Shown here: in pieces, positions 2,923 to 41,258 of the stretch | Position numbering within the stretch: position 1 is the stretch's first letter | Layout of the letters: each line of letters starts with the position of its first letter | From: an uncultured Eubacteriales bacterium | GTDB lineage: Bacteria > Bacillota > Clostridia > Christensenellales > CAG-138 | Direction of reading: 5' to 3' | DNA length: 64,000 nt | Assembly: GCA_900546845.1 (NCBI GenBank) | Contig: UREK01000007.1 | Coordinates: 2,815-66,814 of the forward strand | Program-made: the position numbers and the translations under genes | Notes under the pieces: generated by a model | Told to the model about the DNA's origin: nothing | Database searches by the model: none | What the model saw: the letters and a program-made list of their open reading frames with translations, nothing else

Positions 2923-3109
2923 ATTATGCCTCCATATCTTGCCCGCATCAGCGGCCTGATGCCGCCTGTGGTAGGGACTCGGCACGCAGTATTTCTTCTG
3001 TTCCTGCCACGGTTATAAGGCCGCGGGGGTATGCCCCCGCGCACTGGGGGACGCCCCCATTGCAGGCGGCGAACGGAGGCTGAGGTTGATGCGAATTTGC
3101 AAAAAACGC

Positions 3110-3138
3110 TTTACAAATCGCGGGCGATACAGTATAAT
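3110..3138 (+). promoter_or_regulatory. sigma-70-type promoter upstream of tRNA-Ala
   Basis: TTTACA (3110-3115), 17 nt spacer, TATAAT (3133-3138), about 60 nt upstream of the tRNA. Confidence 0.5.
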
Positions 3139-3201
3139 AATTCCTGCACGAAAGTGTGGGATTTCGCCCGGTATTCCGGAGCGAACTGCCAATTTGGACT
3201 T

Positions 3202-3278
3202 GGGGCTTTAGCTCAGCTGGCTAGAGTGCCACACTGGCAGTGTGGAAGTCAGGGGTTCGAATCCCCTAAGCTCCACCA
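3202..3278 (+). tRNA. tRNA-Ala (anticodon GGC), CCA encoded
   Basis: Hand-folded cloverleaf. Acceptor GGGGCTT/AAGCTCC has the G3:U70 Ala identity pair. Anticodon stem CCACA/TGTGG with loop CTGGCAG. T-arm AGGGG-TTCGAAT-CCCCT. Discriminator A plus CCA. Confidence 0.9.
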
Positions 3279-3280
3279 CG

Positions 3281-3318
3281 AAAACCGCCTGAAACTCTAG
3301 GGTTTCAGGCGGTTTTTC
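3281..3318 (+). terminator. intrinsic terminator after tRNA-Ala
   Basis: Stem AAAACCGCCTGAAAC / GTTTCAGGCGGTTTT followed by a T-run. Confidence 0.75.
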
Positions 3319-3347
3319 ATATGCAGAGTACACACAAAAGTACACGA

Positions 3348-3644
3348 TTACAAAATTTTAGAGAAAACGCCCTCCACGATTTTTGCTGTCTTTTCCAAGT
3401 CGCCTTCGGCTTCGTGCTTGTATCTCCCCGCGTCCATGCTGTCAGAGTGACCGATCATCTGCTTTAGTAAGTCCTCGGGCAGTTCGGTCTTGACGAGGCT
3501 CACCGTCGTATGGCGCAGTTCGTGCAGGGTTGACTTTATCCCGTGCTGGTCGCGGTAGTGCTGCCATTGCTTGTACATGGCGTTTGCGTCCATCTGGTTG
3601 CCATCCGGCCCCGGAAAAAGCCATGCCCGGGTTGCTATGCCCAA
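3348..3644 (-). pseudogene. tyrosine recombinase/phage integrase, C-terminal fragment only (98 aa)
   Basis: Contains the catalytic-domain motifs HELRHTTVS and GHSD...GRYKH (catalytic Tyr region). The N-terminal ~3/4 of a normal integrase is missing. The ORF is cut off by the second copy of the tRNA 3' end at 3651. Confidence 0.7.
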
Positions 3645-3650
3645 GCCCTT

Positions 3651-3712
3651 TAAGCTCCACCATGAAATAAAACCGCCTGAAACCCTAGAGCTTCAGACGG
3701 CTTTGTTTGGAA
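3651..3712 (+). repeat. diverged direct repeat of tRNA-Ala 3' end plus terminator (att-like)
   Basis: TAAGCTCCACCA (3651-3662) is identical to tRNA 3267-3278. It is followed by AAACCGCCTGAAAC.CTAG.G.TTCAG.CGGCTTT, which resembles the terminator at 3281-3318. Confidence 0.7.
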
Positions 3713-3750
3713 TAGGTCAAAAACACACTTGATTTTTGAAATCCTTATTC

Positions 3751-4671
3751 TTATGATTCCTCCTGATTTCTCCAGCTCCTGCGCGTCAGGAACAGAGAAA
3801 GACTTAGCATCGCGCAAAGAAGCATCATGATTACCCACACGCCAGCAGAATGGAATCGTACGCCGGTATTGGGCGACTCTTTTCCGAGTTGTCCCGCGTC
3901 CGTAGAGAGCATGCTCAGCTCCTGCGTGGGCTGCATCGCGTTGGTGAGGGCATAGCGGCTGAAATGCGTCGTTTCGAAGGTGTACACATCGCCCTCGCGC
4001 GCGCCGTCCATTTTAGCAACCGTGCCGTCTTCGGCAATATGCCATACGGCCACCTCGCCCTCAAAGGAAGCAGGAATGGGCAATTTGACCACGATGCTGC
4101 CGGCCAGCTCCGCGCCGAGGAGGGTAATATCGTAAACGCGAGCATCTGCCAGCGTCAGGCCGCTATTTGCGACGGCCTCCGCGAGAATGCTTTGCACCGT
4201 ATCGGCAGGTATCTGGTTGACCGAAAAAGCCGGATCGCCGATCAGCGTCCCGGCGTAGGAAACAAATTCCACGCCCGATGCTTCGTCAAAGATCACAACC
4301 GTATCGGCATTCAAAGCGGGGGAAGCAGTCGGCGCAGCGGTGGGGTCTTGCGCAGGCTCAGGCGTCGGCTCAGCGGTGGGTTCTTGCGCAGGCTCGGCAG
4401 TCGGCGCAGCGGTAGGCTCTTGCGCAGGCTCGGGCGTCGGCTCAGCGGTGGGTTCTTGCGCAAGCTCGGGCGTCGGCTCAGCGGCAGGTTCTTCCGTAGG
4501 CCCGGCAGTCGGCTCCTCGTTCGGCTCCGGCATCGTAATTGCCTGCGGCTCCGTCGCTTCGCCTTCGTCTGCCAGGGCTTCGCTCATGCCAAGTGAGGAA
4601 AAGCAGAAAATGAAGATCAACATCCAGGCGCATAAGGCTCGAAGCCTCAATTTCCATGTCTTATTTTTCAT
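3751..4671 (-). CDS. cell-wall-anchored surface protein with Pro/Thr/Glu-rich repeats (SPNTG sorting signal)
   Basis: Signal peptide, 12-aa EPTxEPxxEPAQ-type repeats, and C-terminal SPNTG + hydrophobic helix + RRSWR tail. Start 4671 is preferred: AGGAG lies 9 nt upstream. ATG 4680 is also possible. Confidence 0.7.
   Translation of the reverse strand: MKNKTWKLRLRALCAWMLIFIFCFSSLGMSEALADEGEATEPQAITMPEPNEEPTAGPTEEPAAEPTPELAQEPTAEPTPEPAQEPTAAPTAEPAQEPTAEPTPEPAQDPTAAPTASPALNADTVVIFDEASGVEFVSYAGTLIGDPAFSVNQIPADTVQSILAEAVANSGLTLADARVYDITLLGAELAGSIVVKLPIPASFEGEVAVWHIAEDGTVAKMDGAREGDVYTFETTHFSRYALTNAMQPTQELSMLSTDAGQLGKESPNTGVRFHSAGVWVIMMLLCAMLSLSLFLTRRSWRNQEES
4328..4507 (-). repeat. about 5 tandem copies of a 36-bp coding repeat
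   Basis: Units start at 4328, 4364, 4400, 4436 and 4472 (GTCGGC.CAGCGGT.GG.TCTTGCGCA.GCTC.GGC). They encode the Pro-rich 12-aa repeat of the surface protein. Confidence 0.8.
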
Positions 4672-5329
4672 AGTTCGCATCTCCTTCGCTGTTCTTTCCC
4701 TTCTTCCGCGCCCATACGAGCAGCAGGATCATGCCCAACGCGGACGCGGCCATCATGGCCAGGTATAAGGGCAGGTTGTTCTCGTCTCCGGTTTGCACGT
4801 TGCCGCCTATGCCGGGCGGGGTGATCGGAGAGGTGGGGGAGATGGGATCGGCCGGGGGCGCAGGCTGGGCATAGCGGTTGGAAAATACCGCGCTTTCCAC
4901 CTTTTCGCCCGCTGGGTTGTAGATCAGCAGCACGCTGGTCAGGCGACCATCGCTGCCCACATACACCTGCAGCATCACCGTGTACTGCCGCCTGTCATAT
5001 TCATACCACTCCTCGGCGTCGATCACATCCTGTGTAAGGGTATAGTGGTAGGTGCCGACATGGCTGGCATTGAACTGCAAATCAATGGATGTGTTGCCGC
5101 GCAGGGTAAAGGCGTATTCTCCGTTCACGCTGCCATCCGGCATGGGCGCGCCCGTCTCTTCCGCCCGCAGGACGTAGTGGAATACATTGTCCACGCCCGT
5201 CAGGTTGGTTGAAAAGGTCTGCTCTACAGGAAGATGCGCCGTAACGCTCTCCGCATAGGCCGACGTCTGCATGCCAAGCAGCAGGATGACCGCCACAAGC
5301 AACGCGCCGATTCGCCTTCCGCATTTCAT
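4661..5329 (-). CDS. pilin-like sortase substrate (NVQTG sorting signal)
   Basis: Signal peptide MKCGRRIGALLVAVILLLGMQTSAYA. Beta-rich body with a Spy0128-like pattern (GTYHYTLTQ...YDRRQYTVMLQVYV). C-terminal NVQTG + TM + RKKGK. Start chosen at the internal ATG with an SD. Confidence 0.7.
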   Translation of the reverse strand: MKCGRRIGALLVAVILLLGMQTSAYAESVTAHLPVEQTFSTNLTGVDNVFHYVLRAEETGAPMPDGSVNGEYAFTLRGNTSIDLQFNASHVGTYHYTLTQDVIDAEEWYEYDRRQYTVMLQVYVGSDGRLTSVLLIYNPAGEKVESAVFSNRYAQPAPPADPISPTSPITPPGIGGNVQTGDENNLPLYLAMMAASALGMILLLVWARKKGKNSEGDANYEK

Positions 5330-5336
5330 TCTTCTA

Positions 5337-6281
5337 TCACCCCTCATGTTTCTTTTCCTCCCGATTGCTTCTTTGGCGCCGCCGCAGAATAAAAACCAAT
5401 ATACCCAGCAGCAGCAATACCGCTGCCAAAATCCAAAGCCACAGGGGCACTCCCAGGGATTCTCCCAGCCGGTCAACGCCCGTGCCCAAATTCGCCGATT
5501 CCTCCGCCTCGGGATAGACCGTATCCGTCAGGCGGCCTACGAGGATATGCCGCCCATTGGTAATGACGCTGGTGCAGGTGCTCAACAGCACCAGATTGTC
5601 CTGCGTGGTTACGTCCATTTCCCGTACATACATGGATTTTTCATAGACGCTGTCCAGATACGCTTGCTCCAGCGCTTCCGCCGCGTCCGAACCGGCCTGT
5701 TGACCCGGGTTTACTAGTGTGAATATATCATCGTAAGCGTCCACCAGCATGAACGCAAAAAATTCAATGCCATGATCCTTCCCGTCAAAGAACAAATTGC
5801 CGTAAGGATGTTCGTCAAAAAATGCCTGCTCCGCAAACAGCCCCAGATCGCCAAACATCTTCCGCTTTTCCATGTGGTGACCGTAGATGATGCTGTTATA
5901 GTCCGTAAAGCGAGGGTTGTTGGCGCAATGCAGAAAGATCGCGCCGCTCATGGAAAAATTCCCCTCAACGTCCGTATTGACGTATTTGCTGTTATCTTCC
6001 GCCTGCAAAAGCGGGTAGTTGATCTCCGTATCGTTCACGCGCAGCCAGCCGATCACCTCCGGGTTGATCGCCCGCAACTCATCAAAGGATCGGGTATCCT
6101 CCTCCGTGGGGATAAACGCCTGATACACCGTTGCTTCCGCCGCGCGGTACACCTGATTCGCGTCCCAAAGGGAATAGCCCGCCAGCAGCATAACGCATAC
6201 CGTCAACGCCAGCGCGGCGAAGCTCACCACGCTATCCAGCAGGCCGATCAGCCGCCTGCAAGCCTTCTTCCATGGGGGCAT
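5337..6281 (-). CDS. class B sortase
   Basis: N-terminal TM. Motifs VIGWLRVNDTEINYPLLQAEDNSKY, IYGHHMEKRKMFGDL and LSTCTS (catalytic Cys), typical of SrtB-type enzymes. Extra C-terminal TM. Confidence 0.85.
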   Translation of the reverse strand: MPPWKKACRRLIGLLDSVVSFAALALTVCVMLLAGYSLWDANQVYRAAEATVYQAFIPTEEDTRSFDELRAINPEVIGWLRVNDTEINYPLLQAEDNSKYVNTDVEGNFSMSGAIFLHCANNPRFTDYNSIIYGHHMEKRKMFGDLGLFAEQAFFDEHPYGNLFFDGKDHGIEFFAFMLVDAYDDIFTLVNPGQQAGSDAAEALEQAYLDSVYEKSMYVREMDVTTQDNLVLLSTCTSVITNGRHILVGRLTDTVYPEAEESANLGTGVDRLGESLGVPLWLWILAAVLLLLGILVFILRRRQRSNREEKKHEG

Positions 6282-6360
6282 TTTGTTCGCATTCCTTTCC
6301 CAGCCGATAAAAAAGGGGATGCGGCAGCAGCGCCGCTCGCATCCCCATGAGGTCTGTTCC

Positions 6361-7512
6361 TTAGTCCTCGTAATCCTGAGCCTTGCGGCGCTTCATCACC
6401 GTGAACAGCACGATCATGCCGCCCGCGATAGCGACCATCAGCACGTAGGGCAGGACATTCAGAATTACGCCCGTCGGCGAAACATAGTTGTAAGTGTTGG
6501 TCACATCAACCGCGTTTTTGCCTGCAAGCAGCGTACGCTGATCTTCCGTGAGAGTAGGAGCTAACGTGAGAGAATCACCAAAGTCTAGACCAGTTATGTT
6601 GCTGTCTACTGTCCCAGCGCCCATTGAGACCACCGCAGAAGGTTTATAGGACGACATGCCAGTTTCTTTCACGTTGACTACCGTTCCAATCGGAAGACCG
6701 GTAAGGACCACGTGCTCGCCATTTTTCAGAGTGAACGTAGCACTGCCGCCGGTCGCGGTGGGGTTCAGTGTGACCGTGCCGCTAGCGCCTACCGTGAATG
6801 GGTTACCACCAGCAGGATAAGTATAATCGACGATAAATGAGAATGTGGTTTGATCGGCAGCATTGAGGGTGTTCTCAACTTTTTTGCCGATTCTCAAGGA
6901 ACCAGTATCAGGATCCGTCGGCATACCTGCTTCTTTCGCATAAGTGTTTACAAAGGCGAGCGCACCAACCTTTCCATCATCACCTGATATGGGGTTTCCG
7001 AGATCGTCCTTTTTCTGCTCGGCGACAACGCTTTCTACCGCATAATCTTTTCCAGTGTTTTTAATGCTAACAGTAACCTCATACTCTGCTTTCGACATGG
7101 CCATTCGGCCGCCGTGTAGGTCAGGCGCAGTAACAGGCACAGAGCCACCGATGGGATCACCCCATATTTGATTCTCCGTGACGGTATATTTGAAGATGCC
7201 CTCTGCCCTAAGATTTGTAATCTGAACTGGTATTGTAGCCGTTTCGACGTCAGCGGAGTGATTCGCTGCAAAGATGGCAGGATCAATCGTCAGCGTAGGC
7301 GCAGTATTAGTGCCAGACATAGGGTCGGGCTCCGTTTGTTTTACATTGAAAAAGAACTTTGCCCCGTAACCAACAGGGTCGTTATACGTCTTGATTACGT
7401 TTATTGACGTAACCTTGGCGTCTTCAGCTTTGGTTTGCTCCGTTGCGAATGCCGTTGCCGCCATGCTCAGCACCAGCATGAGCGCCAACATAATGCTCAA
7501 GAGTCTTTTCAT
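6361..7512 (-). CDS. major pilin-like sortase substrate (VSPTG sorting signal)
   Basis: Start at the internal ATG 7512 (AGGAGG upstream). Signal peptide MKRLLSIMLALMLVLSMAATAFA, ~350-aa beta-rich body, and C-terminal YVSPTG + TM + KRRK. Confidence 0.7.
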   Translation of the reverse strand: MKRLLSIMLALMLVLSMAATAFATEQTKAEDAKVTSINVIKTYNDPVGYGAKFFFNVKQTEPDPMSGTNTAPTLTIDPAIFAANHSADVETATIPVQITNLRAEGIFKYTVTENQIWGDPIGGSVPVTAPDLHGGRMAMSKAEYEVTVSIKNTGKDYAVESVVAEQKKDDLGNPISGDDGKVGALAFVNTYAKEAGMPTDPDTGSLRIGKKVENTLNAADQTTFSFIVDYTYPAGGNPFTVGASGTVTLNPTATGGSATFTLKNGEHVVLTGLPIGTVVNVKETGMSSYKPSAVVSMGAGTVDSNITGLDFGDSLTLAPTLTEDQRTLLAGKNAVDVTNTYNYVSPTGVILNVLPYVLMVAIAGGMIVLFTVMKRRKAQDYED

Positions 7513-7577
7513 TCCTATGGTTCCTCCTTTTAATAAATAAATATAATGTTGTTCTATGGTCAACTGGCCGCGGCGCA

Positions 7578-8123
7578 TCAAATGCCCCGCGTCCGGATAA
7601 CCGCGATGACCTTGCCTTTCACGTCCGCCAAATCCACGCATCCGTAAACCCGGCTGTCCGTTGCGCTGGGGCGGTTGTCCCCCAGCAGGAATACCTGCCC
7701 TTCTCCGACGGTCAGGGGAAAGCTGACTCCCTGCGCAAATTGCGTTGTGTCGTAGTAGATGTCCTGTGCCTGCTGTATTGCTCCGTTCACGATCAGGCCA
7801 TCGGCGGTGATGTCTACGCTGTCGCCCTCCATGGCAACCACGCGGCCCGTCACCGTATTGCCCTCATACTGGATCACCGCGACGTCCCCGATCGCGAACA
7901 GCTTATCCAGCCGGTAGTACACGGCCAGGTCGCCGTCGCGTATGGCGGGCTTCATCGACACATCCGGTATGCGCGCAACGCCGTAGACAAATGTGAACAC
8001 GACAAAAATGCAGCCCAGGATCAACGCTATCTTGAGGACAAGCTGCATGACGTCCAGCACAAGAGAGTATTTCTTCTTGATGGGCTTGCGCGGACTCGCC
8101 GTTTGCGGAGCATGTTCCTCCAT
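7578..8123 (-). CDS. signal peptidase I family protein (pilus-locus SipA/LepA-like)
   Basis: S26 motifs SMKPAIRDGD and GDNRPSATDSRVYG. Single N-terminal TM. Start at ATG 8123 with an AAGGAGG upstream. Confidence 0.85.
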   Translation of the reverse strand: MEEHAPQTASPRKPIKKKYSLVLDVMQLVLKIALILGCIFVVFTFVYGVARIPDVSMKPAIRDGDLAVYYRLDKLFAIGDVAVIQYEGNTVTGRVVAMEGDSVDITADGLIVNGAIQQAQDIYYDTTQFAQGVSFPLTVGEGQVFLLGDNRPSATDSRVYGCVDLADVKGKVIAVIRTRGI

Positions 8124-8181
8124 TATGACACCCCCTCCTTTTGATTGATATTTTTCACTCAAGAAAGAGTAGGCATGGTAT

Positions 8182-8323
8182 GTCCGCGAAAGTGTACTTC
8201 TGCGTATTGACAAATCCGTAAAAGTGTACTTCTGCGTATTGACAGAAATGTCCCCAAATGGGATAATAATATCAATGGAAATGGGAATAAGTGGTATGTC
8301 CGTGAAAGTACACTTTCGCGGAC
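8182..8323. promoter_or_regulatory. cluster of three 26-bp (12-2-12) serine-recombinase-type sites; candidate invertible promoter switch (alternatively a res-like site)
   Basis: Site A 8182-8207, site B 8214-8239 (24-bp perfect direct repeat 8189-8212 = 8221-8244), site C 8298-8323 (near-perfect palindrome). 8182-8199 is the exact reverse complement of 8306-8323. Central dinucleotide is GT in A and B and AC in C. Confidence 0.5.
8239..8267 (+). promoter_or_regulatory. near-consensus sigma-70 promoter inside the putative invertible segment
   Basis: TTGACA (8239-8244), 17 nt spacer, GATAAT (8262-8267). It points away from the pilus operon in this assembly. Confidence 0.55.
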
Positions 8324-8329
8324 TTTTTT
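8298..8329 (+). terminator. hairpin (site C) followed by T6; terminator-like only for + strand transcripts
   Basis: GTCCGTGAAAGT-AC-ACTTTCGCGGAC followed by TTTTTT (8324-8329). On the - strand the same hairpin is not followed by a U-run. Confidence 0.45.
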
Positions 8330-8333
8330 CATG

Positions 8334-8954
8334 TCATAATGGACTTTGCGGGAGCGTCCCCTCGTTCATCTGCTTCACATGATTGTAAAAATATGTGCGG
8401 CCTACCTGCAGCGTTTCCAGCGCCTGCGGCAGGGTGATCTCCCTTTCCTGCCATTGCCGCGCGACAGCCTCGAAATTCTCCGGCAGCGGCCTGCCCTTTC
8501 TGCCGAAACGCACGCCCCTCGCCTTGGCCGCCGCGATGCCCGCCGCCTGCCGCTCGTGGATGTTCTCCCGCTCCACCTGCGCGACGTAGCTAAGAATCTG
8601 CAAAACCAGATCGGTCATGAAGGTGCCGGTCAAATCCTTATCCTTCTTGCGGGTGTCCAGCAGGGGCATATCCAAAACCACTACGTCCGCGCCGATCTGC
8701 TTGGTGATCCGCCCCCATTGCTCCAATATCTCCGTGTAATTGCGTCCCAGCCGGTCGATGGAAACAATAAAAAGCGTATCCCCCGCCCGCATACGGCGAA
8801 TCAGCCGGCCATATGCCTGGCGGCAGAAATCCTTGCCGCTCTGCTTTTCCACGATGATCTGCTTTTTCTCCAAGCCTGCATTCATGAGCGCGTTGATCTG
8901 CCGGTCAAGGCGCTGCTCCCTGGTCGATACTCGCGCGTAGCCATACTTGCACAT
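8334..8954 (-). CDS. small serine recombinase (resolvase/invertase family)
   Basis: 206 aa from the internal ATG 8954 (SD upstream). N-terminal YGYARVSTREQRLDRQ catalytic-Ser motif. C-terminal HTH-like tail. Confidence 0.85.
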   Translation of the reverse strand: MCKYGYARVSTREQRLDRQINALMNAGLEKKQIIVEKQSGKDFCRQAYGRLIRRMRAGDTLFIVSIDRLGRNYTEILEQWGRITKQIGADVVVLDMPLLDTRKKDKDLTGTFMTDLVLQILSYVAQVERENIHERQAAGIAAAKARGVRFGRKGRPLPENFEAVARQWQEREITLPQALETLQVGRTYFYNHVKQMNEGTLPQSPL

Positions 8955-9037
8955 TGCACATTTCCCTCCAATCTCCAAAATCAAAAAAGACAACCCGTGT
9001 GAGCCCGTCACATCAGGTTGCCTTTTCTGATTTTGGC

Positions 9038-9874
9038 CTATTCAACTGATTCCTCCGGCATTCTGGCTTTTCGCAAAACGCCGTGCAAAACATATCGCGC
9101 GTTATCGAATTCATAGCTGCAGGTGGACAGCGTCAAAATACGCTCGCCCTGACCCGGCACAACCTTCGTTTCAATACTCGACCGCTCCTTGATGACCTCC
9201 CGCCATGCGTCAAATTCGTCCTCGTCCTGAAAGACGATTTTCCATGCGCCGCTGTCGCTTCGGGCCACATGCCCGGAAAAGATTTCCACCACATACCGCG
9301 CTGTTTCTGTGATCAGCAGAAAGCGGGGATGCTCGTCGTAGTAGCTCTGCTTTTTGAATTTGCTCAGCCCGCCGAACATGGAGCCGTCCTTGCGGTTATG
9401 GGCATAGATGATGCTATGCCCATCCGAAAAATCCCCGACGTTTTCCGCGTCCAAAAACGGGCAGCCGGCTTTGTTTTTCGTTCCGTCAAAGAGGTAATTT
9501 AAGTATTTCGCGTTATCCTCCGCCTGCACCACGGGGTAATTGATCTCGCTGCCCTCCAAAACCAGCCAGCCGACGATTTCGGGATTGATCTCTCGCAGCC
9601 GCTCAAAATCCACCTCCGGCCAGATGATGCCGGGATAATCGTATTCCATGGGCATCGGTGCGGGTGATGGCGTAGCGGCAGAGGGCGGTATTGCGGATGG
9701 CGTCGCAAAACCAGCCGCCGTCTCTGTTGGAGATATGGAAACAAATTCGTCCAGCTTTGTATAGGCCGTGCTGCTTTGCAGGTATTCCCTGCCCTGTACC
9801 CATACATGGTAAGCGGCATAAAGAAACACAGCCATGAGCAAGCAGGCCGTGATTGCGATGCATTTCTTTCTCAT
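9038..9874 (-). CDS. class B sortase (second copy)
   Basis: TM anchor. Motifs EIVGWLVLEGSEINYPVVQAEDNAKYL, IIYAHNRKDGSMFGGL and LSTCSY. Start 9874 is preferred (AAAGGA SD); ATG 9889 is possible. Confidence 0.8.
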   Translation of the reverse strand: MRKKCIAITACLLMAVFLYAAYHVWVQGREYLQSSTAYTKLDEFVSISPTETAAGFATPSAIPPSAATPSPAPMPMEYDYPGIIWPEVDFERLREINPEIVGWLVLEGSEINYPVVQAEDNAKYLNYLFDGTKNKAGCPFLDAENVGDFSDGHSIIYAHNRKDGSMFGGLSKFKKQSYYDEHPRFLLITETARYVVEIFSGHVARSDSGAWKIVFQDEDEFDAWREVIKERSSIETKVVPGQGERILTLSTCSYEFDNARYVLHGVLRKARMPEESVE

Positions 9875-10444
9875 CGTGCGTCCTTTCATGGGTTAGGGCG
9901 GATCGCCCCACCGCTTGCTTTATCCTATCTGCATTCGATAGAACAATCCATATTTAGGATGCGCAGGCCAATAAACCGCCTGCGATCAATACTGGACGCC
10001 CATCTTCGTCCATGTTTGATTTTTTTGTGCAGCCGCGCAGCTTTCTACTGAAAATCGTACCATAAATCCTTTGGTGCGTCAATTAGATGGATTAGCCTAA
10101 ATCCATTACAACGACTTTGCGCCCAGGCGTTAGGCGGTGACATGGACGACCATCCATTTGTCCCTGAAGTCAAGCGCTTAATGGAAACCCGTCCCATGCC
10201 ATATCAGGAGCCAGCCTTTTACGGATTACGGTGCCCGGTGTATATCCATTCTTGTGCGGTTGCACACAAAAACCGGACGCTGTAAAACTCCTGCTGCTTT
10301 TTCCATCGCATACGCTCTTGGCGGGCAAACAATGGAACCGTGAAGGTTTGGCTGCGCTCGCCGCAAGCTGTTGGCTGTTGATTGTATTTTTGCTGTTTGA
10401 TATACTGTGTGCAAAGGAAATTCATATTTATAGGATGGTGTGTT

Positions 10445-10990
10445 TTGAAAAAACAGTTGAAGCTATATGTCCCTGAATACCGCGACCTGTGGTACCGGCA
10501 GAAAATATTGGGCGATGCTGCTACTATGGACTACAATAAAGGGTATGACCTGGATTTCAAGGGATACCATAAAGACAGCGGCTGCATTGAGTTCCCTCCG
10601 GAGCAGTGGAGGGACTGGTATGATTATTTCATCGGGCAGGAGCCGAAGCGGTTTTACGCCTATGTGACCCGCTTGCGGGATGGTGTGTTTATCGGAGAAG
10701 TAAATGTCCATAAAAGCGATTCTGCACCGTGGTATGAGATGGGCATTGTTCTGGAAGCCGGGTTCCGGGGGCAGGGCTATGCCATCGAGGCGTTGGAGCT
10801 GCTTTTGCAGCATGCCTTTGTAACCCTAAATGCAGAGGCTGTCCACAATAATTTTGAGGGTACACGCGAAGCTGCCATTCGCACCCATCTTGCAGTCGGG
10901 TTCACGGAATGTAAAAAGGAAAACGGAATTGTTGAACTGCTGATCACCAGGGAGCAGTATTTCGCAAAACAGGCCGCTTCTCCCTGCTGA
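10445..10990 (+). CDS. GNAT family N-acetyltransferase
   Basis: Acetyl-CoA binding region GIVLEAGFRGQGYAIEALELLLQHAF. Start is uncertain: TTG 10445 is proposed, and the ORF is open from 10382. Confidence 0.7.
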   Translation: MKKQLKLYVPEYRDLWYRQKILGDAATMDYNKGYDLDFKGYHKDSGCIEFPPEQWRDWYDYFIGQEPKRFYAYVTRLRDGVFIGEVNVHKSDSAPWYEMGIVLEAGFRGQGYAIEALELLLQHAFVTLNAEAVHNNFEGTREAAIRTHLAVGFTECKKENGIVELLITREQYFAKQAASPC

Positions 10991-11110
10991 GCCAACGCTG
11001 GGCTCCGAAATAGGAATGCGTTCGCGCCTTGCGGCACGGCGAAGAGAAGCAGAGTGCCGGAGCGAGGATTCTATGCCCATAAAATCCGCGCTTTTCCGGC
11101 AAAAAAGGCG

Positions 11111-39923: not shown

Positions 39924-41258
39924 ATGGATCTGTTTTCCGGAAACGCAGGAAAGCGTGCGCCGCTTGCGGACCGCATGCGCCCGCGCACGCTGGATGAATT
40001 TATCGGCCAGGCGCACATCGTCGGCAAGGGCCGCCTGCTGCGCCGGGCGATCGAGACGGACAGCCTCACAAGCTCCATTTTTTTCGGCCCGCCGGGCTGC
40101 GGCAAAACCACGCTTGCAAACGTCATTGCCAACCAGACGGGCGCGCGCATCGCAAAGCTTAACGCCGTCACCGCCGGGGTGAAGGAGGTGCGCGCCGTCA
40201 TAGACGAGGCGCAAAACACCCTTTCACTGTATGGCCAGAGCACCTACCTTTTGCTGGACGAATGCCACCGCTGGTCCAAAACCCAGAGCGACAGCATCTT
40301 GCCTGCGCTCGAGAGCGGCGTGATCCGCTTTATCGGCTCCACGACGGAAAACCCGATGGTCTCGATGACGGGAGCGGTCGTCTCCCGCTGCCGCCTGTTC
40401 CAGTTTTATCCGCTCACCACGGAGGATGTGGCGCAGGCCATGCGCAATGCCCTTGCGGACAAGGAGCGCGGGCTTGGCAATTATAATGTAGAGATCGAGC
40501 CGGAAGCGTTCGAGCACATCGCGCGCATCGCAAACGGGGACGCGCGCAGCGCCCTCAACGCGCTGGAGCTCGCTGTGCTCACTACACCGCCCGAAAACGG
40601 CGTGATCCGCATCGACCGGGAGATCGCGGCGGAGTCCGTGCAGCAGAAGGTCGTCAAGTGCGACGACCAGCAGTTTTACGATATGCTTTCCGCTTTCTGC
40701 AAAAGCCTACGGGGCGGGGACAGCGACGCGGCGCTCGCCTGGTTTGCCCGGCTGATCTACGCGGGCGTGGACCCGCGCGTTATCGCGCGCAGGCTCATCG
40801 CCCATGCGTCGGAGGACATCGGCCTAGCGAACCCGCAGGCCATGGTGCAGGCCGTGAGCGCGGCGACGGCGCTCGAGCACATCGGCATGCCGGAGGCGAA
40901 GCTGCCGCTCGCGCAGGCGATCATCTTCCTGTGCGAAAGCCCGAAATCCAACGCTGTCGTCATGGCGATCGACGCGGCGTTTGCAGACGCGAAGGACGTG
41001 CCGGACGAGCCTGTCCCCATCCATTTGCGGGATACAGCTTTCCGCGGCGCGGAAAAGCTCGGACACGGCAAGGGGTACAAATACCCGCACGATTATCCCG
41101 GCCACGTAGTGGCGCAGGAATATATGCCGCCTTCGGTGAAGGGCCGGCGGTACTACATCCCGGGCGAGCTCGGGAACGAGGCGAAGATCCGCCAGAACCA
41201 CATCCGCAGCGGCAAGCTCAAAACGCCGGGAGGGGAACCGGCAGAAAAGAATGAATAA
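39924..41258 (+). CDS. rarA: replication-associated recombination protein A (AAA+ ATPase)
   Basis: 444 aa. LADRMRPRTLDEFIGQ, Walker A GPPGCGKTT, LLLDECHRW, and a MgsA C-terminal domain (FYDMLSAFCKSLRGGDSDAALAW). Confidence 0.9.
   Translation: MDLFSGNAGKRAPLADRMRPRTLDEFIGQAHIVGKGRLLRRAIETDSLTSSIFFGPPGCGKTTLANVIANQTGARIAKLNAVTAGVKEVRAVIDEAQNTLSLYGQSTYLLLDECHRWSKTQSDSILPALESGVIRFIGSTTENPMVSMTGAVVSRCRLFQFYPLTTEDVAQAMRNALADKERGLGNYNVEIEPEAFEHIARIANGDARSALNALELAVLTTPPENGVIRIDREIAAESVQQKVVKCDDQQFYDMLSAFCKSLRGGDSDAALAWFARLIYAGVDPRVIARRLIAHASEDIGLANPQAMVQAVSAATALEHIGMPEAKLPLAQAIIFLCESPKSNAVVMAIDAAFADAKDVPDEPVPIHLRDTAFRGAEKLGHGKGYKYPHDYPGHVVAQEYMPPSVKGRRYYIPGELGNEAKIRQNHIRSGKLKTPGGEPAEKNE

Follow-up and report, generated by a model that had tools for sequence, protein, structure and literature searches.

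A serine recombinase gene and an invertible promoter as a probable on/off switch for a sortase-dependent pilus operon in Christensenellales-type Clostridia

In the window analyzed here (the whole stretch of 64,000 nucleotides, from contig UREK01000007.1 of an uncultured Christensenellales bacterium, to which all positions refer unless a contig is named), a gap of 210 bp separates the start of a sipA-like gene (8123), the first gene of a pilus operon, from the stop codon of a gene for a small serine recombinase (8334). This gap very probably holds a phase-variation switch, in which the serine recombinase inverts a promoter segment located in front of the pilus operon. In the mechanism that we propose, dimers of the 206-amino-acid (aa) recombinase would bind three 26-bp sites, denoted A, B and C (Table 1), and cleave them at the central GT/AC, whereupon a segment of 114 bp (A x C) or 82 bp (B x C) carrying a strong sigma-70-type promoter would invert. 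In the OFF orientation, this promoter would fire toward the 3' end of the recombinase gene and transcription would stop after about 55 nucleotides (nt) at the hairpin of site C and the U6 tract behind it. In the ON orientation, the promoter would fire into the genes for SipA, the major pilin, sortase B, the minor pilin and the PT-repeat protein, with the hairpin sitting in the 5' leader without a U tract. With B as a duplicate of A, the system could interconvert among four arrangements, two of each state, and switching would be reversible within a clone on short time scales. Occasional use of a weak pseudo-site 42.7 kb away, in a gntR-type gene, would produce a large chromosomal inversion.

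The most direct evidence comes from public assemblies. Using exact-protein look-up with the recombinase, SipA and four allelic recombinases as queries, we collected about 70 contigs from ENA, JGI, NCBI and Logan assemblies and read the sequence 3' of the recombinase stop codon in each. The segment is in the OFF orientation in 32 distinct contigs in addition to the window and is exactly inverted, with the promoter aimed at sipA (ON), in 12 contigs; places with the same neighboring genes were collapsed, and these counts are not frequencies. Site C is the junction of every rearranged contig, and in the ON contigs its partner is either site A (A x C; L008, L009, L113, L143, L147, L148, L151 and L160) or site B (B x C; L115, L144 and L011). 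Both inversion products had been predicted in an earlier note made from the window, along with the direction in which the inverted promoter would fire, and both are found, with the promoter oriented toward the sipA-pilus operon; the comparison of related loci that the note suggested as a check thus turned up ON as well as OFF forms. Two of the ON contigs, L008 and L009, match the window with 100% identity, both in the sequence on either side and across the flipped 142 bp (in L009, positions 3836-3977 correspond to 8182-8323 of the window on the opposite strand, with 100% identity) and, therefore, one clone exists in both states, its OFF form being represented by the window, L007 and L010. ON/OFF pairs occur in four recombinase lineages that have lineage-specific sites (e.g., L134 vs L133, and L143/L144 vs L145/L146), such that both orientations are present in natural populations of one strain. 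All four arrangements of the three-site system are observed, two ON and two OFF, the latter with A and B in the distal position (the window and L145) or with the 32-bp unit beside the recombinase gene (L149 and L150). Strains with a single distal site invert as well (L133 vs L134). A pattern scan of JGI metagenomes yielded three contigs, all of them OFF.

The two orientations could also be explained as fixed differences between strains, or as artefacts of assembling palindromic DNA, as opposed to active, reversible switching. Each assembly shows one orientation, no retrieved sample contains both complete forms, and most of the contigs are OFF, as this explanation would have it. We nevertheless consider it very unlikely, given that ON and OFF contigs are 100% identical over several kb of flanking sequence, that both states occur in at least four recombinase lineages, and that all four permutations are present. 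Furthermore, four contigs break at the repeat boundary: L120, L131 and L132 terminate precisely at ...GTGTACTT, beyond which the ON and OFF forms diverge, and L019 starts precisely where the two forms converge, with a 55-nt overlap with the end of L008 from the same sample. Such breaks are expected of a branching assembly graph when both forms are among the reads. Because the 18-bp repeat is shorter than assembler k-mers, a misjoin is unlikely, and an artefact is unlikely also because the ON contigs contain both junctions along with unique flanks, which a fold-back would not yield.

The anatomy of the gap is that of an inverton, i.e., inverted repeats surrounding an intergenic promoter that adjoins the putatively regulated operon, and the repeats themselves have the form of Hin/Gin/Cin/Pin sites, namely, inverted 26-bp sequences with the 12-2-12 layout and a non-palindromic core. 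The three sites are where the earlier note had placed them; its 18-bp inverted repeat was borne out by 100% complementarity of the 18-nt arms (8182-8199 and 8306-8323), and so was the core polarity, which is GT in A and B and AC in C. All six half-sites match the consensus RTMCGYRRAAGT in 12 of 12 positions. Outside A, B and C, no sequence in the 64-kb window scores 19/24 or higher against the site consensus, and a shuffled window, used as a chance control, contains 0-2 sites at this level. Sites A and B belong to a 32-bp unit repeated twice in tandem (8183-8212 and 8215-8244; 93% identity), each copy of which closes with TTGACA; the additional TTGACA created by this duplication is missing in the strains with a single distal site (L012, L133 and L146). 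The pentanucleotide GGTAT lies directly 5' of both A (8177-8181) and C (8293-8297).

The point of exchange can be located by combining two types of junctions. In the single-site lineage, the paired sites differ at positions 12 and 19, and the L134 product puts the exchange within GTACTT (site positions 13-18). At the junctions with the gntR-type gene (see below), the identity between the partners is AGTGT (site positions 10-14), which bounds the exchange from the other side. The two ranges overlap in the central GT alone, which is precisely the outcome expected if a serine recombinase makes a staggered cut of 2 bp; the exchange thus occurs at the central GT/AC dinucleotide. A role of A or B as an accessory subsite was considered and rejected: both are crossover points, and single-site strains still invert.

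The 206-aa product of the adjacent gene contains the catalytic domain of small serine recombinases, with the nucleophilic serine near residue 10 (N-terminus MCKYGYARVST; MCKYGYARVSTREQ); the PF00239 match covers residues 23-167 of the long open reading frame (ORF), and alignments to Sin and gamma-delta begin at residues 1-4. There is no match to the Pfam HTH_7 domain; the gamma-delta alignment reaches residue 195 of 206 (181 of 183 in gamma-delta) and spans the DNA-binding domain of the latter. By bit score, the closest of the characterized enzymes is Sin (88.9, E = 3.3e-24), followed by gamma-delta (80.9, E about 1e-21), Tn3 (72.4) and Gin (62.6, E = 3.7e-16). Accordingly, the protein is not nearer to the Hin/Gin invertases than to resolvases, and it falls far below the cut-off of the Mpi family (NF009949; 45.1 bits vs 272). 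Plasmid-borne relatives annotated as 'res: DNA recombinase' are 48-56% identical to it. The Hin/Gin-type layout that the earlier note described for the sites therefore stands, with the qualification that the enzyme is closer to Sin and gamma-delta than to Gin. The recombinase would be Hin-type in its use of sites (12-2-12, non-palindromic core, promoter inversion) but, judging by its sequence, should not be filed within the Hin/Gin subfamily. The ORF of 218 codons on the + strand opposite the recombinase gene (8346-9002) is not a gene; long antisense ORFs over real genes are common in the window and are typical of DNA with 60% GC.

The affinity of the enzyme with Sin (3e-24), gamma-delta (1e-21) and Tn3, and with the 48-56% identical plasmid 'res' recombinases, might be taken to indicate that A, B and C form a res-type site of a transposon or plasmid, where the recombinase would resolve cointegrates or multimers and play no part in pilus expression. 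Superficially, three sites in a row resemble res subsites, and both the lower GC content compared with the flanks and the truncated integrase at 3348-3644 would be compatible with a mobile origin. This alternative, which the earlier note itself had raised, is almost certainly wrong: no transposase accompanies the locus, whose chromosomal context is constant in dozens of assemblies; the sites are located where the recombinase gene ends (3') rather than upstream of it; the core polarity of C is opposite to that of A and B; inversion crossovers occur at A as well as at B; and two-site strains invert (L133 vs L134). The directly repeated res sites, mobile replicon and deletion product of a res-type resolution system do not describe this locus, and the promoter switch stands.

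It might be argued, too, that the inversion is carried out by another recombinase or by homologous recombination, the adjacent gene being a coincidental neighbor. This is extremely unlikely. Exchange within the 2-bp core of dyad-symmetric 12-2-12 sites is the signature of a serine recombinase, the 5-bp identity at the gntR junction is far too little for homologous recombination, and the recombinase gene and the sites remain linked across lineages whose protein identity is as low as 68%, with the site sequences drifting in step. The neighboring recombinase is thus the presumed catalyst of the inversion.

The promoter that the earlier note described on the + strand (TTGACA-17-GATAAT) was recovered by a consensus scan; as assembled, it points away from the pilus operon, which is the OFF orientation. 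The terminator-like hairpin of site C (8298-8323), followed by TTTTTT and facing the promoter as assembled, was likewise found by the scan, and folding gives it -18.8 kcal/mol with U6 behind it. For the leader hairpin of the ON state, folding gives -30.9 kcal/mol, and the sequence behind it is AUGCC instead of a U tract; because GGTAT precedes both A and C, the stem of this hairpin lengthens to 18 bp upon inversion. The prediction that the hairpin of the inverted form would be followed by AUACCAUG instead of a U-run agrees with what is seen in the ON contigs. The -35 element, the TGn extension and the -10 element are invariant over three lineages that differ in the spacer and in the downstream bases. 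These features suggest that the invertible promoter drives the pilus operon and that hairpin C with U6 acts as a terminator, predicted to be effective in the OFF state alone. When searched against Rfam, neither the switch region nor the junction of the L116 type (see below) came near the gathering score of any family, and the interpretation of the region as a riboswitch or a known small RNA was dropped.

Even if the inversion is real, its main effect could lie elsewhere, with the operon transcribed from a constitutive promoter or by read-through and the invertible promoter producing a short RNA or modulating the recombinase. The OFF promoter would indeed give rise to an RNA that terminates after about 55 nt and is antisense-proximal to the 3' end of the recombinase gene; read on the operon strand, the hairpin lacks a U tract, which makes read-through possible; and there is a weak promoter-like match at 8125-8154, although on the + strand. 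We find this quite unlikely because a naturally occurring deletion (see below) retains exactly the promoter, beside the sipA ribosome-binding site, the promoter elements are invariant amid diverging neighboring bases, the same module precedes a different surface-protein gene in L153, and Rfam has no match for a regulatory RNA here.

Several considerations weigh against a recombinase-driven pilus switch as a complete account. The enzyme is nearer in sequence to resolvases than to classical invertases, and some other enzyme could in principle use the three sites. No single sample yielded both full-length orientations, the contig breaks being an indirect sign of mixture, and the counts of ON and OFF contigs do not translate into frequencies. 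The functions of the promoter and terminator rest on consensus matches. The ON-state hairpin between the promoter and sipA (-30.9 kcal/mol) might attenuate expression, and, as the hairpin lacks a U tract on the operon strand in either state, transcription of the sortase-recombinase unit might read through and provide basal pilus expression when the switch is OFF. With these points taken into account, a phase-variation switch remains, in our estimate, very probable.

Two types of by-products of the switch are preserved in the assemblies. Contig L114 (4621-4720, corresponding to 8124-8275 of the window in the ON orientation) carries a 90-bp deletion that removes the hairpin and the distal site and fuses GATAATAATATC to AAAGGAGG of the sipA ribosome-binding site; L114 is thus a locked-ON variant, and this form is represented by L114 and one further similar place. 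The deletion appears to be mediated by the short repeat 8139-8155/8265-8281, which is direct in the ON state. That the promoter is retained and ends up joined to the sipA ribosome-binding site points to selection on promoter placement.

The second by-product is a large inversion. In L001 and L004 (and six further similar places), the similarity to the window stops just past the GT of the proximal site, and beyond this junction are a 5'-truncated gntR-type gene and then an ABC transporter. The reciprocal junction (L011) is found on the opposite strand of the same 236-kb contig, at a distance of 42.7 kb, and reads: the 5' part of the gntR gene, ATCCATGTTAGT-GT-ACTTCTGCGTAT, a sipA-facing promoter, a C/B hybrid site and site A (junctions at 6640-6650 of L001 and 5800-5830 of L011; the intact form is at 8134-8175 of L103). 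When rejoined, the two halves of the gntR gene give an in-frame 125-aa YtrA/GntR regulator, and exactly this protein is intact on 41 contigs, in the context FeoB-FeoA-gntR-ABC-...-serpin. The intact gntR site, ATCCATGTTAGT-GT-GATTACTGTTCA, has 13/24 consensus matches, a score that is reached 222 times in the window, and is for this reason regarded here as a pseudo-site. Comparison of the split contig with four intact ones (L103, L108, L110 and L112) shows 100% identity in stretches of 5.8 kb and 6.0 kb (0 differences in about 11.8 kb), which makes the inversion either a recent event or one that recurs in a single clone. Whether the 42.7-kb inversion is a recurrent and reversible second phase-variation event, such that the invertase runs more than the local switch, is rather doubtful; the occurrence of one clone with the gntR gene intact and split is compatible with it, and the weak match of the pseudo-site, at a level common in the window, counts against it. 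The inversion splits the gene for a YtrA/GntR-type repressor, places the ABC-transporter genes downstream of the sortase-recombinase unit and brings the pilus operon behind the gntR promoter as well as the invertible promoter; pilus expression would thereby be coupled to de-repression of the transporter.

The gntR-ABC cassette (6646-8400 of L001; 8001-9900 of L103) is AT-rich, with about 39% GC, and its regulator is 86-98% identical to GntR-family proteins on many metagenome contigs; the few of these with a name are from Acetatifactor and Anaerotaenia, and one cluster mate comes from Eubacterium. The cassette is probably a horizontally spread module. A further type of junction was observed in one lineage (L116 4621-4758, L118 4297-4467, L119 4058-4361, L121 and L122), where the recombinase gene is followed by GTCCGCGAAAGC-GC-ACTTCTCAGAGT (19/24 matches, core GC) and then by unrelated, non-coding-looking DNA, with no pilus operon before the contigs end (at most 303 bp).

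The switch is not limited to the strains close to the window. In a large protein collection, we identified recombinases with 68-80% identity, encoded in a common layout that consists of a sortase gene, the recombinase gene, an A-run, a 12-2-12 site with the core AC, a reversed promoter of the form TTGACA-17-TAnnnT and a 12-2-12 site with the core GT. The A-run between the recombinase stop codon and the proximal site is kept in L153, L154, L156 and L157; the L156 contig stops 232 bp past the recombinase gene. The conserved module adjoins sipA-pilus operons in L154/L155, L157 and L160. In L153 (690-810; 1015 onwards), which encodes a 71% identical recombinase, a two-site module with a reversed promoter precedes the gene for a surface protein of more than 2977 aa, so the module appears to be portable between surface-protein loci. 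The site sequences drift along with the recombinase, with the dyad symmetry and core polarity kept, which argues for function. Among species-representative genomes, the relatives of the recombinase are at most 61% identical (Oscillospiraceae, Collinsella and others), with no orthologous locus; a sortase is encoded nearby in 2 of 80 cases, and neither pilus genes nor matching sites accompany these relatives.

The operon facing the switch (Table 1) encodes the hallmarks of an FCT-type pilus locus, namely, a SipA/LepA-like protein of the S26 family, FctA pilins and class B sortase. The FCT-like operon that the earlier note placed beside the recombinase is thus supported by profile searches, with both sortases, one on each side of the switch, exceeding the cut-off of TIGR03064. 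At every related locus, as in the window, the sortase gene comes before the recombinase gene. In the three proteins with sorting signals (VSPTG, NVQTG and SPNTG), a transmembrane segment and then a basic tail come after each signal.

Table 1. Sequence features of the switch, the recombinase gene and the sortase-pilus locus in the 64-kb window
Feature	Position	Strand	Characteristics
Site A, sipA-proximal crossover site	8182-8207		GTCCGCGAAAGT-GT-ACTTCTGCGTAT; core GT 8194-8195
Site B, crossover site	8214-8239		ATCCGTAAAAGT-GT-ACTTCTGCGTAT; core GT 8226-8227
Site C, recombinase-proximal crossover site	8298-8323		GTCCGTGAAAGT-AC-ACTTTCGCGGAC; near-palindrome, core AC 8310-8311
Invertible segment, A x C	8196-8309		114 bp
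Invertible segment, B x C	8228-8309		82 bp
Putative promoter, TTGACA-17-(TGn)GATAAT	8239-8267	+	11/12 consensus positions and TG extension
Second TTGACA	8207-8212	+	product of the 32-bp A/B duplication
T6 run 3' of hairpin C	8324-8329	+	A6 on the recombinase strand
Short repeat	8139-8155 with 8265-8281		inverted repeat as assembled; direct in the ON state
Small serine recombinase, presumed invertase	8334-8954	-	206 aa; PF00239 Resolvase, E = 1.9e-28
Class B sortase, directly upstream of the recombinase gene	9038-9874	-	278 aa; TIGR03064, 175.3 bits (cut-off 153.75)
sipA-like gene, S26 signal-peptidase family, operon gene 1	7578-8123	-	181 aa; PF10502, E = 8.7e-22; TIGR02227, 99.6 bits
Major pilin candidate	6361-7512	-	383 aa; PF24547 (DUF7601) and PF12892 (FctA); VSPTG signal, transmembrane segment, basic tail
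Second class B sortase, presumed pilin polymerase	5337-6281	-	314 aa; TIGR03064, 169.5 bits (cut-off 153.75)
Minor/basal pilin candidate	4661-5347	-	228 aa; PF12892, FctA-type; TIGR03786; proline-rich tail, NVQTG-type signal
PT-repeat surface protein, last operon gene	3751-4680	-	309 aa; PF04886; SPNTG sorting signal

Across otherwise near-identical strains, the major pilin gene differs greatly, with called products of 352 to 405 aa, and a 36-bp tandem repeat (4328-4515) gives the PT-repeat protein lengths between 290 and 531 aa; this variation suggests diversifying selection on the pilus surface. In the SipA-like protein, inspection by eye shows that the SM(K)P serine box is kept and that GR replaces the catalytic KR; the protein may be a non-catalytic pilus chaperone like SipA of Streptococcus pyogenes. 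The block from about 3000 to 11000 has a GC content of 49-55%, compared with 59-63% in the flanks, and a 98-aa fragment of a tyrosine (phage-type) integrase is located at 3348-3644, just past the pilus operon. The sortase-recombinase-pilus block has the look of an island acquired long ago.

Clostridia of the Christensenellales type are common as commensals of the gut, and most of their lineages are uncultured or little studied. The host of the locus is probably an uncultured member of this order also by its proteins, since cluster mates (90% identity or more) of the housekeeping protein encoded at 39924-41258 bear the names Christensenella sp., Christensenellales or Christensenellaceae. For these bacteria, the present analysis describes a concrete switch that probably turns sortase-dependent pili on and off and shows one recombinase-promoter module in front of pilus operons, or of the gene for a giant surface protein, in several related lineages. 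It also documents natural by-products of the switch, the locked-ON deletion and the 42.7-kb pseudo-site inversion; the three-site, four-state layout and a terminator that would operate in the OFF state only are added features. On the practical side, this locus is a place where assemblies of these organisms are broken or disagree, and the orientation in a reference sequence should not be taken as the expression state. The understanding of phase variation as such is unchanged.

Indeed, invertible promoters are textbook phase variation and are found in thousands of genomes (PMC11868660). The locus described here is very probably a real pilus on/off switch of this well-known kind, and its principle is not new. 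It shares with the Hin/hix flagellar switch of Salmonella and the Gin, Cin and Pin systems a small serine recombinase and inverted 26-bp sites with a 2-bp non-palindromic core, and with Hin/hix also the location of the promoter on the inverted segment and of the recombinase gene adjacent to the switch. Unlike in the case of Hin, the recombinase gene is outside the invertible segment, which is about 100 bp long rather than about 1 kb, and a Fis-bound enhancer like that of Hin/Gin would not be anticipated in Clostridia, Fis being a protein of proteobacteria. By sequence, the closest enzymes are Sin (Tn552/pI9789) and the plasmid Res and beta-type resolvases, with the same domain order; these resolve directly repeated res sites with accessory subsites on plasmids and transposons, whereas the sites here are chromosomal and inverted, and the outcome is inversion. 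With shufflons, the switch has in common more than two sites and several permutations (four arrangements), but the recombinase belongs to the serine rather than the tyrosine (Rci) type, and the segments carry a promoter instead of coding exons. A serine recombinase that flips promoters of surface structures in a gut commensal, with heterogeneous orientation in metagenomes, is known from Mpi of Bacteroides fragilis and from the gut invertons detected with PhaseFinder; unlike the global Mpi, the recombinase studied here is local and dedicated to one locus, with no other site within the 64-kb window. In Bifidobacterium breve, also a gut commensal, sortase-dependent pili are phase-variable between ON and OFF as well, in that case by replication slippage as opposed to site-specific inversion (PMC9187656).

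A literature search of partial coverage retrieved no serine-recombinase invertible-promoter switch of pili for Clostridia or Christensenellales and no account of surface variation in these bacteria. The closest precedent is the invertible promoter of SZO08560, a sortase-processed surface protein of Streptococcus zooepidemicus, which lies between 10-bp inverted repeats next to the recombinase gene SZO08550 and from which transcription depends on orientation (PMC2654543). As in the locus described here, the host is Gram-positive, a promoter segment of about 114 bp is enclosed in inverted repeats, the recombinase gene is adjacent and the target is sortase-processed. The S. zooepidemicus recombinase, which Steward et al. 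in 2015 reportedly named PinR and described as a serine recombinase, is said to invert also a part of the FimIV pilus locus. Relaxed recognition of degenerate sites by PinR reportedly gives further, larger inversions, which would parallel the gntR pseudo-site event; the likeness to PinR concerns arrangement and target. The present switch differs from that of S. zooepidemicus in that the host belongs to Clostridia and the target is a whole operon for SipA and a class-B-sortase pilus, the 10-bp GTAGACTTTA repeats are replaced by 26-bp 12-2-12 sites with a GT core, and three sites provide four states, with a predicted terminator coupled to the OFF state.

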